Positions 42,075 to 50,107 of a DNA stretch of 64,000 nt are shown here, piece by piece. Positions within the stretch are counted from its first letter, which is position 1. The number at the start of each line of letters is the position of its first letter. This stretch comes from Candidatus Binatia bacterium (GTDB lineage Bacteria > Desulfobacterota > Binatia > UBA9968 > CAXXLF01): positions 1,376,001-1,440,000 of the forward strand of contig CAXXLF010000002.1 of assembly GCA_963664015.2 (NCBI GenBank), in the 5' to 3' direction. The notes under the pieces are model-generated. The model had not been told where the DNA came from. It saw only the letters and a list, made by a program, of their open reading frames with translations, and did no database searches. The position numbers and the translations under genes were made by a program.

Positions 42075-43265
42075 TTACGCTATAATCTTAGTCACGACTC
42101 CGGCCCCAACGGTCCGACCGCCCTCGCGGATAGCGAAGCGGAGCCCTTCTTCCATGGCGACGGGGTTAATCAAACTGATCTCCATGGTCACATTGTCTCC
42201 GGGCATAATCATCTCGGTCCCTTCGGGAAGTTTCACGACACCCGTAACGTCGGTGGTTCGGATGTAGAACTGGGGCCGGTATCCGTTAAAAAACGGGGTG
42301 TGCCGCCCTCCCTCTTCCTTGGTCAGGACGTAGGACTCCGCATTGAACTGGGTGTGCGGGGTAATACTACCGGGTTTGGACAGGACCTGGCCGCGTTCCA
42401 CATCCTCGCGCTTCAAACCGCGGAGCAGGACTCCGACGTTGTCTCCGGCGCGGCCTTCGTCGAGAAGCTTGCGAAACATCTCAACACCTGTCGCTATCGT
42501 CTTTACGGTGTCCTTGAATCCGACGATTTCCACCTCATCGCCGACTTTGACAACGCCCCTTTCGATTCTTCCCGTTACCACTGTCCCACGCCCGCTGATG
42601 GTAAAGACATCTTCCACGGGCATTATGAACGGCTTGTCAATAACGCGCACGGGCTCGGGGATGTAACTGTCCACAGCGTCCATCAACTTCATGACGGCGG
42701 CTTCTCCCATGTCGCTTCCATCCCCTTCAGAGGCTTTCAGTGCGCTGCCGACTACAATAGGGATATCATCGCCGGGGAATTTGTATTTGGACAGGAGCTC
42801 TCTAACTTCCAACTCGACGAGCTCGAGCAGCTCCGAATCGTCGACCATATCGGCCTTGTTGAGAAAGACCACGATGGAGGGAACGCCAACCTGGCGCGCC
42901 AATAGGATATGTTCACGTGTCTGGGGCATAGGTCCGTCAGCTGCCGAGACAACCAAAATGGCACCATCCATCTGGGCCGCACCGGTGATCATGTTTTTAA
43001 CGTAGTCTGCGTGACCGGGACAGTCCACGTGGGCGTAGTGTCTCTTTTCGGTCTCGTACTCCACGTGGGAGATGTTGATGGTCAGCCCTCTTTCCTTTTC
43101 CTCTGGAGCCTTGTCGATCTGATCGTAGGCCAAACCTTGGGCCCATCCTTTTTTCTCAAGGACTTTGGTAATCGCCATGGTGAGCGTTGTCTTTCCATGG
43201 TCCACGTGACCGATGGTCCCAATATTGAGGTGAGGCTTCTTCCTCTCAAACTTCTGTTTACTCAT
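42075..43265 (-). CDS. tuf: Elongation factor Tu
   Basis: [31 protein letters not shown]. Confidence 0.99.
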
Positions 43266-43383: not shown

Positions 43384-43456
43384 AGCCCAGGAGCGGGCTT
43401 GAACCGCCGACCTCGTCCTTACCAAGGACGTGCTCTACCAACTGAGCTACCTGGGC
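43384..43456 (-). tRNA. tRNA-Thr (GGT), no encoded CCA
   Basis: GCCCAGG...CGTCC-TT-GGT-AA-GGACG...CCTGGGCT. Confidence 0.93.
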
Positions 43457-43480
43457 ACAACGAACGATCCAAGGTAAGAC

Positions 43481-43557
43481 TGGAGCGGGAAACGGGATTC
43501 GAACCCGCGACCCCGAGCTTGGAAGGCTCGTGCTCTAGCCAGCTGAGCTATTCCCGC
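43481..43557 (-). tRNA. tRNA-Gly (TCC)
   Basis: GCGGGAA...CGAGC-CT-TCC-AA-GCTCG...TCCA. Confidence 0.95.
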
Positions 43558-43627
43558 CAGACTCACCAAACCAACCAAATGATATAAAAAGCCCTGTCCG
43601 AACGGCTCGTATCCTACGCCCTTTAAA

Positions 43628-43713
<86 letters not shown>

Positions 43714-43769
43714 GCGTTAGCCAATTACCTCAATCTGCCAAACGTCGACCCAACATTTTAAAAACAATC

Positions 43770-43844
43770 TGGAGCTGGCGATAGGAATTGAACCTACAAC
43801 CTGCTGATTACAAATCAGCTGCTCTCCCATTGAGCTACGCCAGC
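43770..43844 (-). tRNA. tRNA-Thr (TGT)
   Basis: GCTGGCG...GCTGA-TT-TGT-AA-TCAGC...TCCA. Confidence 0.95.
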
Positions 43845-44870: not shown

Positions 44871-46049
44871 GTGAAACGCACCCTCAGCCTTTACGTGATC
44901 TCCGAGATCCTGACCCCCTTCTTGCTGGGTCTCATGGCCTTCACCTTTGTTCTACTCACGGCTCGGATCCTCAAACTCGTCGAGCTCTTGATCACCCGGG
45001 GAGTTCCGTTTTTACAGATCGGCAAGCTCTTCACCCTCATCCTGCCCACCTTCCTGGAGATGACGTTGCCCATGGCGCTCTTGCTCGGTATCCTCATGGG
45101 ATTGTCTACATTGTCCAGTGATCAGGAAATTCTCGCCTTCAAGGCATGCGGCGTCAGCCCGCTTCAAATCCTGCTACCCATCGGGACCGTGGCCCTGTTC
45201 GTTTCCCTGTTTACCTTAATGATCAGCACACACGTGGGCCCCGCCGCCAATCTTGCCCTCAAGAAGGAACTCTACAACATAGCCAAGACCCGTGTGGGAG
45301 CAGCACTCAAAGAAAAGGTCTTTAACGATGACTTCCCCAAGGTGCTGATCTACGTGGAGGAGGTGATTCCTCCCGGCAACACGTCTCAAGGAGTCCTCAT
45401 TGTAGACCGTCGCGATCCCGTGCGGGAAAATATCATATTCGGCAAAATGGCGATTTTCTTGTCTGATGATAATTCGGAGGCACTGAGCTTGAAGATTTTT
45501 GACGGCGTCCTGCACGAAAGAGAAAAAAACCAGCCGGACTTTAGCCAGACCCATTTCAGCACCTATCACTTCAAGCTCGAACTCGATCAAGCTTTCAATC
45601 TGGTACGGAAAAAGGGAGAAAAGCCCAAAGAGATGTCCCTTCGTCAACTGGGACGTTCCATCCGGAGCAAGGAGGCTCAGGGGCTCAAACCCACTGCCGA
45701 ACTCATTGAACTGCATCAGAGATTCTCTTTTCCTTTTGCCCCCCTGGTTTTCTGTATTCTTGGAGTCGCTTTGGTTATGATCCCAACGGGATCCCGTGGG
45801 GGGCGTTTCTGGGGTCTTGTTTCCTGCCTATTCTGGTTGCTTCTCTATTATACTTTATTTTCCGCTGGGCGCGCCCTGGCGGAGAAAGAGATACTGGCTC
45901 CATCCCTTGCCATGTGGCTCCCCAACATCGTCATCGGCCTGATCGCCATTTATATTTTTCAAAAGGCAATGAGGGAATCTCCTCCCCTGTTAGAGGTAAT
46001 TTGGCAAAAGGGTTCAGCCTTTTGGAGTCGGAGATTCACCTCCCAGTAA
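44871..46049 (+). CDS. lptF: LPS export ABC transporter permease LptF
   Basis: TLSLYV..EI..PF, LSSDQE..A..ACGVS, 3 TM + soluble domain + 3 TM, WLPN. Confidence 0.9.
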   Translation: MKRTLSLYVISEILTPFLLGLMAFTFVLLTARILKLVELLITRGVPFLQIGKLFTLILPTFLEMTLPMALLLGILMGLSTLSSDQEILAFKACGVSPLQILLPIGTVALFVSLFTLMISTHVGPAANLALKKELYNIAKTRVGAALKEKVFNDDFPKVLIYVEEVIPPGNTSQGVLIVDRRDPVRENIIFGKMAIFLSDDNSEALSLKIFDGVLHEREKNQPDFSQTHFSTYHFKLELDQAFNLVRKKGEKPKEMSLRQLGRSIRSKEAQGLKPTAELIELHQRFSFPFAPLVFCILGVALVMIPTGSRGGRFWGLVSCLFWLLLYYTLFSAGRALAEKEILAPSLAMWLPNIVIGLIAIYIFQKAMRESPPLLEVIWQKGSAFWSRRFTSQ

Positions 46050-46073
46050 AGGAGGCGTTTTTAAAATGGCCCA

Positions 46074-46375
46074 TGGACTCCATAATATGGAGAGGGACCG
46101 TTCATGACCAAAGCTGATCTAATTGAATCTGCAACCAACAAATCGGGACTCCCCAGGCAGAGTGTTGAGAATATCATTAATGATGTTTTCAACGGCATAA
46201 CAGCTGCATTAAAAAGCGGAGATAAGGTGAATATCTCCGGATTTGGAACGTTTTCGATTTCCCAACGTAAGGCAAGGACTGGGAGAAATCCCAAAACTGG
46301 AGAATCGATTCAGATTACTGCTTCTCGTGCTGCAAAATTTAAGGCTGGTAAGGGTTTAAAAGAATCCCTCGCCTG
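46074..46375 (+). repeat. Copy of hup (30-nt leader plus CDS), inverted relative to 49791-50092
   Basis: Manual alignment: 8 mismatches in 270 coding nt, 3 in the 30-nt leader; stop TGA reads TGG. Confidence 0.95.
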
Positions 46376-47486
46376 GGAAGCCCCCGATCGTAACGTCTCA
46401 CTCCCCTTCGGAAGCATCCTGGATCGTTACCTGGTGCGCAGCTTTAACCGGGTCTTCGTCCCCACATTGATGGCAATAGGTTTTGTGTACTTCACCGTGG
46501 AGTTCTTTGATCGCATTGATAATCTGATGAGGGCAGGAGCCTCCGCCGGGGCTGCCACGAGATACTTCCTGTATAAGATTCCCCTGCTGATTTCACGGGT
46601 GTTTGGTTTTGCCACCCTCTTTTCCACCCTTTTAACGATCGGGATGCTATCACGAACCTATGAAATCACCGCAATGCGCGCATCGGGCCTGAGTCTACAC
46701 CGCCTTGCTGCACCCTTGCTCTTCGTTTCCATGCTCATTGGAATGCTATCCTTCATGTGGAACGAGAGCCTGGTACCGCTGTTCACCCGTAAGTCCCAAT
46801 ACATCTACAAGGTCGAAGTTAAAAACCAGACCCCCAAGAGCCTCATTGGGACCCAGGGGATATGGATCCGTGGCAAAGAGGCCTTTATCAGTGTGGACTA
46901 CTTCGACGCCAAGAAAAATATACTCCAGGGGGTCACCATTTACCTCATCAACTCCGAATTTACCCTTCAAGGACTCATCGAGTCCCCTGAGGCCCGTTGG
47001 GACGGGTCACGCTGGCGCACCGGCGAGAGTACCGGATGGACCTTGCTGTCCGACGGCCGGCTTAGCCAGCAGCAGGCAACCGTAAGGGTTCTCCCCATCT
47101 CCGAGAAACCGGAAGACTTCAAGATCCTGGCCCGCAAGGCAGAAGAGTTCAACTTCTTCGAGCTCAAGCGGCAAATCAAAGATCTAACCGATAAGGGGAT
47201 TGATACCACCGAGTACGCAGTCGATCTGCAGGTCAAGCTTGCGTTTCCAATGATCCCTTCCCTCATGGTCCTACTGGCTATCCCCTTTGCCCTCAAACAG
47301 GGGACCCGAGCGGGAGTTGCGATCTCCTTTGGATTTACCATGCTCATCGGGCTCGCCCACCTGACCCTCATGGCCTTTTGCGTTTCTCTCGGCCATAGCG
47401 GTGCCATGCAGCCATGGATGGCCGCATGGTTACCCAATTTCGTATTGGCATTAGTTGGGATCTATTACATGACCGGTGAGGAGTAA
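46104..47486 (+). CDS. lptG: HU-LptG fusion: N-terminal HU DNA-binding domain (aa 1-90) fused to LPS export permease LptG
   Basis: MTKADLI...GFGTF...GRNPKTG...FKAGKGLK, then ILDRYL, EITAMRASGLS, AAWLPN in one open frame directly after lptF. Confidence 0.9.
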   Translation: MTKADLIESATNKSGLPRQSVENIINDVFNGITAALKSGDKVNISGFGTFSISQRKARTGRNPKTGESIQITASRAAKFKAGKGLKESLAWEAPDRNVSLPFGSILDRYLVRSFNRVFVPTLMAIGFVYFTVEFFDRIDNLMRAGASAGAATRYFLYKIPLLISRVFGFATLFSTLLTIGMLSRTYEITAMRASGLSLHRLAAPLLFVSMLIGMLSFMWNESLVPLFTRKSQYIYKVEVKNQTPKSLIGTQGIWIRGKEAFISVDYFDAKKNILQGVTIYLINSEFTLQGLIESPEARWDGSRWRTGESTGWTLLSDGRLSQQQATVRVLPISEKPEDFKILARKAEEFNFFELKRQIKDLTDKGIDTTEYAVDLQVKLAFPMIPSLMVLLAIPFALKQGTRAGVAISFGFTMLIGLAHLTLMAFCVSLGHSGAMQPWMAAWLPNFVLALVGIYYMTGEE

Positions 47487-49789: not shown

Positions 49790-50062
49790 TCAGGCGAGGG
49801 ATTCTTTTAAACCCTTACCAGCCTTAAATTTTGCAGCACGAGAAGCAGTAATCTGAATCGATTCTCCAGTTTTTGGATTTCTCCCAGTCCTTGCCTTACG
49901 TTGGGAAATCGCAAATGTTCCAAATCCGGAGATATTCACCTTCTCTCCGCTTTTTAATGCAGCTGTTATGCCGTTGAAAACCTCATTAATGATATCCTCA
50001 ACACTCTGCTTGGGGAGTCCCGCTTTGTTGGTTGCAGATTCAATTAGATCAGCTTTGGTCAT
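49790..50062 (-). CDS. hup: Histone-like DNA-binding protein HU
   Basis: 90 aa, GFGTF...R.GRNPKTG.....FKAGK.LK; usual position after lon. Confidence 0.97.
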   Translation of the reverse strand: MTKADLIESATNKAGLPKQSVEDIINEVFNGITAALKSGEKVNISGFGTFAISQRKARTGRNPKTGESIQITASRAAKFKAGKGLKESLA

Positions 50063-50107
50063 GAACGGTCCCTCTCTATATTAGGAAGTCCAACGGTATA
50101 ATGTTGG

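Follow-up and report, generated by a model that had tools for sequence, protein, structure and literature searches.

LptG is an essential permease subunit of the lipopolysaccharide exporter LptB2FG, and its N-terminus is cytoplasmic according to the established topology of this complex. HU, a histone-like bacterial protein that packages DNA, is an obligate, intertwined dimer. Proteins in which HU is joined to other modules include the HU-HIG family (PF18291) and mycobacterial HupB with its C-terminal tail, as well as seven long HU proteins recovered during this work (P0121-P0127). To our knowledge, known HU-domain fusions are soluble DNA-binding proteins and not transporter subunits. At the DNA level, replication template switching is a general mechanism that creates segmental inverted duplications and usually leaves microhomology. 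Here, we analyzed a DNA stretch of 64,000 nucleotides, referred to as the window, from a Candidatus Binatia bacterium, a marine bacterium in which a copy of the nearby hup gene has been placed into the beginning of lptG and forms a single reading frame with it. The features discussed below are as follows (positions are those of the window):

44871-46049, plus strand: lptF, 392 aa, the upstream gene of the operon (PF03739, E=1e-88)
46039-46055, plus strand: 5-bp stem CCTCC/GGAGG across the lptF stop (stem scan); its 3' arm is part of the AGGAGG Shine-Dalgarno sequence of the old lptG start
46066-46107, plus strand: orphaned lptG start, in which an ATG and the next 5 nt of the former coding sequence (46066-46073) open a 13-codon ORF (translation; homology of the start region)
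46074-46375, plus strand: inserted inverted hup copy of 302 nt (DNA alignment and repeat finder, pair I1, 96%)
46104-47486, plus strand: fused HU-LptG ORF with HU at residues 1-90, a linker at residues 91 to about 104, and the LptG body from about residue 105 to 460
49791-50092, minus strand: donor segment matching the insert (repeat finder)
49793-50062, minus strand: native hup, which served as the donor and encodes 90 aa with a stop of its own; its synteny with lptG is conserved in relatives

The ORF list and profile searches identified HU and LptG in frame within one ORF of 460 aa. Residues 1-89 matched PF00216 (Bac_DNA_binding) over profile positions 1-89 of 90 (104.8 bits at a cut-off of 22.4, E=3e-30), and residues 108-456 matched PF03739 (LptF_LptG) over positions 1-351 of 353 (246.2 bits at a cut-off of 27.9, E=6.5e-73). 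According to the profile search, the genome holds exactly two PF03739 genes, lptF and the fusion, so that the fusion is the sole lptG; LptD and LpxC are encoded as well. The lptF gene ends with TAA at 46047-46049, and 16 nt separate its end from the old lptG ATG. The interval between HU and the LptG motif LDRYL (46377 to the GTG following LDRYL) contained no stop, no in-frame ATG, GTG or TTG, and no Shine-Dalgarno-like box.

An AlphaFold2 model of the fusion (mean pLDDT 77.7, pTM 0.60) displayed residues 1-91 in an HU fold, followed by a linker with pLDDT <50 at residues 91-102 and the first transmembrane helix from residue 105. LptG is characterized by six transmembrane helices with a periplasmic beta-jellyroll between the third and the fourth; this arrangement was found in the model as helices at 105-242, a beta domain at 253-325, and further helices at 336-459, a topology taken from the model only. 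In six out of seven distinct solved LptG sequences, residue 3-7 aligned to residues 101-106 of the fusion, the exception being 8frl_G, whose alignment begins only at fusion residue 125. Taken together with the known topology of LptG, the model would place the HU domain in the cytoplasm, about 13 residues off the membrane. As each exporter would carry a single HU chain, a partner chain would be needed for the dimer, either free HU or a second fusion protein.

The origin of the HU part could be traced within the window. DNA alignment and repeat finder agreed on the boundaries of a 302-nt inverted repeat (46074-46375 and 49791-50092) with 96% identity, the arms of which are 3415 nt apart; this repeat is far above chance expectation. 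The copy comprises 30 nt of the hup leader including the Shine-Dalgarno sequence GGAGAGGGA (46089-46097), the ATG at 46104, and all 90 codons. Its 3' end is formed by the TG of the hup stop codon: GCC TGA of the native gene corresponds to GCC TGG in the copy, which continues into lptG. At either junction, 46073/46074 and 46375/46376, similarity to hup ends abruptly, and the insertion point lies between the second and the third base of lptG codon 3. At these donor-defined junctions, alignment to the donor revealed neither a duplicated base nor microhomology of at least 2 nt. A first-pass annotation of this DNA had proposed that hup was inserted at codons 2-3 of lptG. The copy indeed lies in frame inside codon 3; the 311-nt boundaries that were proposed along with it were replaced by the 302 nt obtained from the donor alignment.

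In total, five HU/IHF-type matches were obtained in the genome. The product of native hup is 93% identical at the amino acid level to the HU part of the fusion, and the three remaining genes (genome G000, C2:1445888-1446154, C2:1047631-1047897, and C1:881044-881304) are 38-40% identical, the first of them being located just outside the window. Upstream of native hup, a promoter-like element TTGACA-18-TATAAG was read by eye at 50137-50108; its distance from the copied piece is 16 nt. Because this element falls outside the copied piece, the hup promoter is presumably not part of the copy. A sigma-70 scan did not flag the element at 50137-50108, and promoter-like matches in the region occurred at the level of shuffled sequence (4 vs 4.1 expected).

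Several further observations were made around the repeat. Both hup copies contain an imperfect 30-nt palindrome, GTTGAGAATATCATTAATGATGTTTTCAAC, at 46164-46193 and 49973-50002 (I5 and I7), which is probably merely coding sequence. The inverted arms at 46074-46375 and 49791-50092 flank lptG, argC, rpsI, rplM, tRNA-Asp, and tRNA-Val, and recombination between them would flip 3.4 kb and put HU-lptG behind the native hup promoter. Logan contigs end within the shared hup sequence and are therefore silent on the linkage of arms to flanks. On the other side of lptF, a cluster of four tRNAs (Thr, Gly, Tyr, Thr; 43384-43844) adjoins tuf (42075-43265, minus strand), an ordinary conserved arrangement.

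The former beginning of lptG is still readable. Directly 3' of the lptF stop, AGGAGG is present at 46050-46055, followed by an ATG at 46066, and GCCC occurs at 46069-46072 and again at 46380-46383; all of these had been located correctly by the first-pass annotation. The 13-codon ORF opened by the orphan ATG, also described there, translates into MAHGLHNMERDRS; it terminates with a TGA (46105-46107) that forms an ATGA overlap with the HU ATG at 46104. When 46074-46375 was excised from the sequence, ATG GCC CA was joined to G GAA GCC CCC GAT, which restored an in-frame LptG of 372 aa (MAQEAPDRNV...SILDRYL). The three nearest LptG proteins in a collection of 5.8 billion proteins (P0001-P0003) are 76-77% identical and likewise comprise 372 aa. 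The same length was found for P0004 and P0006, which are 63-64% identical, and all five proteins are collinear with the reconstructed LptG. Their N-termini, MNGENPGRYVTLPLGCILDRYL and similar, each comprise 22 residues as far as the L or V that follows DRY, equal to the reconstruction, which has E4, P6, R8, V10, L12, P13, and G15 in common with P0001. Two genomes of the same family, G001 and G003, also encode LptG N-termini of 22 residues, and upstream of their lptG genes we found the box GG..GTTTTTAA[AG][AG]TG along with TTTTTAA, homologous to the AGGAGG/ATG region of the window. Based on the match in length, N-terminus, and upstream box of these relatives, we concluded that AGGAGG/ATG at 46050-46068 is the true former lptG start, which bears out the earlier proposal of an orphaned start. 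The suggested alignment with the LptG starts of relatives thus confirmed the homology of the start region, and the 22-residue N-termini agree with an excision of 302 nt, not 311 nt.

The stem CCTCC/GGAGG at 46039-46055 is followed by CGTTTTTAAA, and this stem may formerly have coupled lptG translation to that of lptF. At position 46089 the copy carries a G and the native leader an A, which changes AGAGAGGGA into GGAGAGGGA and results in a better Shine-Dalgarno sequence (GGAG). The same change from A to G also creates the internal ATG of the 13-codon ORF.

The two hup copies differ at 11 of 302 nt, three in the leader and eight in the coding part, and six of the eight coding changes alter a residue. 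The changes were polarized using six outgroup hup genes and two closer stand-alone HU proteins of 90 aa, P0129 and P0130. Three replacements (A14S, D23N, and E27D) and one synonymous change were assigned to the insert lineage, and three replacements (R18K, D40E, and S51A) and one synonymous change to the native lineage. All six residue differences are located within positions 14-51, and the DNA-binding beta-arm (residues 53-75) is identical in copy and native HU. With three conservative replacements in each lineage, the insert has changed at no faster pace than the native gene, a pattern that would also fit a retained HU function.

The exact protein of 460 aa is recorded in NCBI and ENA on two contigs, and at least part of the stretch was present in 20 public runs from 12 studies. 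Contigs were aligned from four of these runs (X1, X2, X6, and X7), which belong to four studies and are of DNA or unknown type. X1 and X2 each yielded two contigs without any difference, over 45600-46119 and 46090-47000. In both runs, a further contig joins 46074 from the sequence upstream of native hup, as is expected since the two copies share 31-mers. From X6, a seawater metagenome, contigs over 45861-46108 (3 differences) and 46318-46944 (9 differences) bridged both junctions. The X6 piece covering 46074-46315 runs into sequence upstream of native hup, and the interior of the insert has no insert-specific contig in this run. In X7, a second seawater metagenome, a contig over 45607-46132 with 3 differences bridged the left junction. 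The source sample may be among X1 and X2; X6 and X7 stem from other studies and show SNPs, indicating that the insertion predates the divergence of the strains. Among RNA runs, only a fraction of 0.04-0.08 of the sampled words was present. The first-pass annotation had also suggested a search for a form of the locus with the insert precisely deleted. No contig joint skipping the insert was seen in the four runs, bearing in mind that contigs can miss rare forms.

In both seawater runs, the lptF stop TAA is changed to CAA (T>C at 46047), which would extend lptF by five codons up to a TAA at 46062-46064, immediately ahead of the orphan ATG. X6 further displays 46055 G>C within the AGGAGG box, and 46381 C>A, which changes Ala to Asp in the linker.

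The fusion was present in every strain sampled by the contigs of the four runs, and we surveyed other genomes and collections for it. The 40 closest genomes (4 of the same family and 36 of the same order) yielded no HU-LptG fusion, and their LptG matches begin at query residue 75 or later; in many of these relatives a separate hup is located at a distance of 2-7 kb from lptG, with synteny as in the window. Among 400 genomes sampled across the phylum, 107 had an LptG match with E<=1e-60, none of which begins before query residue 73. The best 120 of 682 LptG protein matches contained PF03739 only, and when proteins of 253-805 aa were searched with the HU part, the seven long HU proteins P0121-P0127 were recovered, none of them with PF03739. 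Neither the exact junction pattern (allowing one N) nor a codon-degenerate pattern had a match in JGI metagenome contigs, and the degenerate pattern had none in genome_contigs; the window's own genome records were possibly excluded from these pattern searches. As these surveys have limited sensitivity, the fusion is to be regarded as not found in them rather than absent. Judged from search listings, no report of an HU-LptG fusion was found in the literature. Taken together, this HU-LptG architecture seems to be novel and restricted to the lineage studied here.

Two explanations would question the insertion or its boundaries. Two copies that are 3.4 kb apart and 96% alike are able to confuse assemblers, and the locus might thus be an artefact of assembly or sequencing, either a chimeric join or a collapsed repeat. 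We consider this extremely unlikely: the copy and the native gene differ at 11 sites, contigs from four studies bridge both junctions (X1, X2, and X6) or the left junction (X7), and at residues 18, 40, and 51 the copy has kept the outgroup states where the native gene has changed. A copy with ancestral states that were lost by the native gene is no product of assembly, and the view of the first-pass annotation that the locus is not a simple misassembly stands. That annotation had further proposed a 311-nt insertion (46073-46383) with GCCC on either side as a 4-bp target-site duplication or microhomology. GCCC is present on both sides, and a 311-nt excision keeps the frame and, as had been computed, yields an LptG beginning MAPDRNVSLPFGSILDRYL. 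However, similarity to the donor stops at 46375, so that the 8 nt at 46376-46383 are not derived from hup, and the GCCC pair falls outside the donor-defined junctions. Excision of 311 nt also results in an LptG of 369 aa, three residues short of the five nearest homologues fetched, all of 372 aa, and loses the E that aligns to E4 of P0001-P0003. Within the same window, a shared 4-mer within 8 nt on either side was found for 46% of random pairs of sites 302 nt apart, and for 17% if the spacing of the shared 4-mer was also required to keep the frame; the window contains GCCC 389 times (6.1 per kb). The proposed duplication is thus at chance level and very improbable, and we read the GCCC pair as a coincidence.

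With the insertion accepted, its consequences for the protein may be explained in different ways. HU and LptG could be two proteins if LptG were made separately by non-canonical internal initiation or were released by proteolysis, for which the linker at residues 91-102, predicted to be disordered, would offer a cleavable site. However, no stop separates HU from LptG, and ahead of LDRYL there is neither an in-frame ATG, GTG or TTG nor a Shine-Dalgarno-like box, which makes separate production highly unlikely. Alternatively, the HU domain may have been co-opted and kept by selection, with the membrane-anchored HU and free HU tethering chromosomal DNA to the inner membrane at the LPS exporter, or with the anchored HU joining two LptB2FG complexes. 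This would fit the three conservative replacements in the insert lineage, equal in number to those of the native gene, with beta-arm residues 53-75 unchanged, the occurrence of the fusion in diverged strains from four studies, and the HU fold on a flexible linker that is retained in the AlphaFold2 model. However, the essential LptG downstream enforces frame and length, so the intact ORF is uninformative on HU function, and three replacements against one synonymous change correspond to the neutral expectation. Moreover, the fusion was found neither in the 40 relatives, the 400 phylum genomes, the best 120 of 682 LptG matches, and the seven long HU proteins, nor, as a junction pattern, in JGI metagenome contigs and genome_contigs. 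We therefore regard co-option as unlikely. A specific version, in which HU-LptG together with free HU links the chromosome to the inner-membrane Lpt machine and thereby serves as a tether or positions export, with the inverted hup copies as a possible recombination switch, is somewhat less likely still. The preferred reading is that of a tolerated passenger within a real and expressed fusion that arose in one event, which we consider likely from the sequence evidence. Because an essential gene would permit only insertions that keep a start signal, lack a stop, and match the frame, the tidy in-frame outcome is explained without a selected function of HU. The fusion is real but probably accidental and tolerated.

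How such a passenger may have been acquired, we infer from the anatomy of the junctions alone. One illegitimate intrachromosomal event would have copied 302 nt of hup, located 3.4 kb downstream on the other strand, in inverted orientation into codon 3 of lptG, possibly by a template switch during replication or as a templated patch at a break. The copied piece would have brought along the hup ribosome-binding site, the ATG, and 90 codons, without the promoter and without the last base of the stop, so that HU reads into LptG. With lptG in single copy and LPS genes present, only an insert free of stops, in frame, and with its own start would have been able to survive. The earlier assertion that the allele could persist only by in-frame read-through is therefore plausible, given the sole lptG and the presence of LptD and LpxC. 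As the hup promoter was not copied, transcription would occur from the lptFG operon. Translation most likely begins at the copied hup start, possibly helped by ribosomes that start at the orphan lptG ATG, read 13 codons, halt at ATGA, and re-initiate. The product would be a working LptG to whose cytoplasmic N-terminus an HU domain is attached via a disordered linker of about 13 residues. This domain would most likely pair with free HU, and we regard it as a tolerated passenger, not as a new function.

Other routes were also considered. A transposable element (IS or MITE) does not fit, as no target-site duplication exists at the true junctions, neither a transposase nor terminal inverted repeats are present, and the insert consists wholly of hup and is flanked by no repeat except the hup arms. 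A retro-copy of hup mRNA was dismissed on account of the ends of the copy: it begins 16 nt after the TATAAG box read by eye, and its 3' end falls within the stop codon instead of reaching a terminator. A search of the genome, 97% complete, yielded no Ku (PF02735), and classical capture by end joining is therefore without support.

The locus represents a natural case of one-step domain accretion from a local duplication of 302 nt, in which the donor, the recipient, and the two junctions can still be recognized and the former lptG start signals persist as a fossil. LptG is an antibiotic target of current interest, and it can apparently persist in nature with a folded cytoplasmic N-terminal domain of 90 residues. 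The case also holds a lesson on survivorship: an essential downstream gene keeps an insert open and in frame, and an intact ORF is thus no proof of function. If the HU domain were active, it would constitute a previously unreported covalent link between the nucleoid and the envelope machinery.

In comparison to inverted duplications attributed to template switching, the copy is likewise short, nearby, and inverted and lacks transposase, terminal repeats, and target duplication; in contrast to the microhomology that is usual there, neither junction shows any of 2 nt or more. Compared to LptG of the LptB2FG permease (6mit_G, 6mhu_G, 5l75_G, and 5x5y_G), residues of about 105-460 align with the family over its full length, the gene lies behind lptF, as it does in relatives, and the model contains the transmembrane helix bundle along with the beta domain at residues 253-325. 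In addition, the fusion carries an HU domain of 90 aa at the cytoplasmic N-terminus, unseen in the LptG proteins examined here. Compared to HU itself (1hue_A and 3rhi_A), the HU part is full-length and adopts the HU fold in the model; in contrast to HU, it lacks both a stop codon and its own promoter and is covalently joined to a membrane protein.
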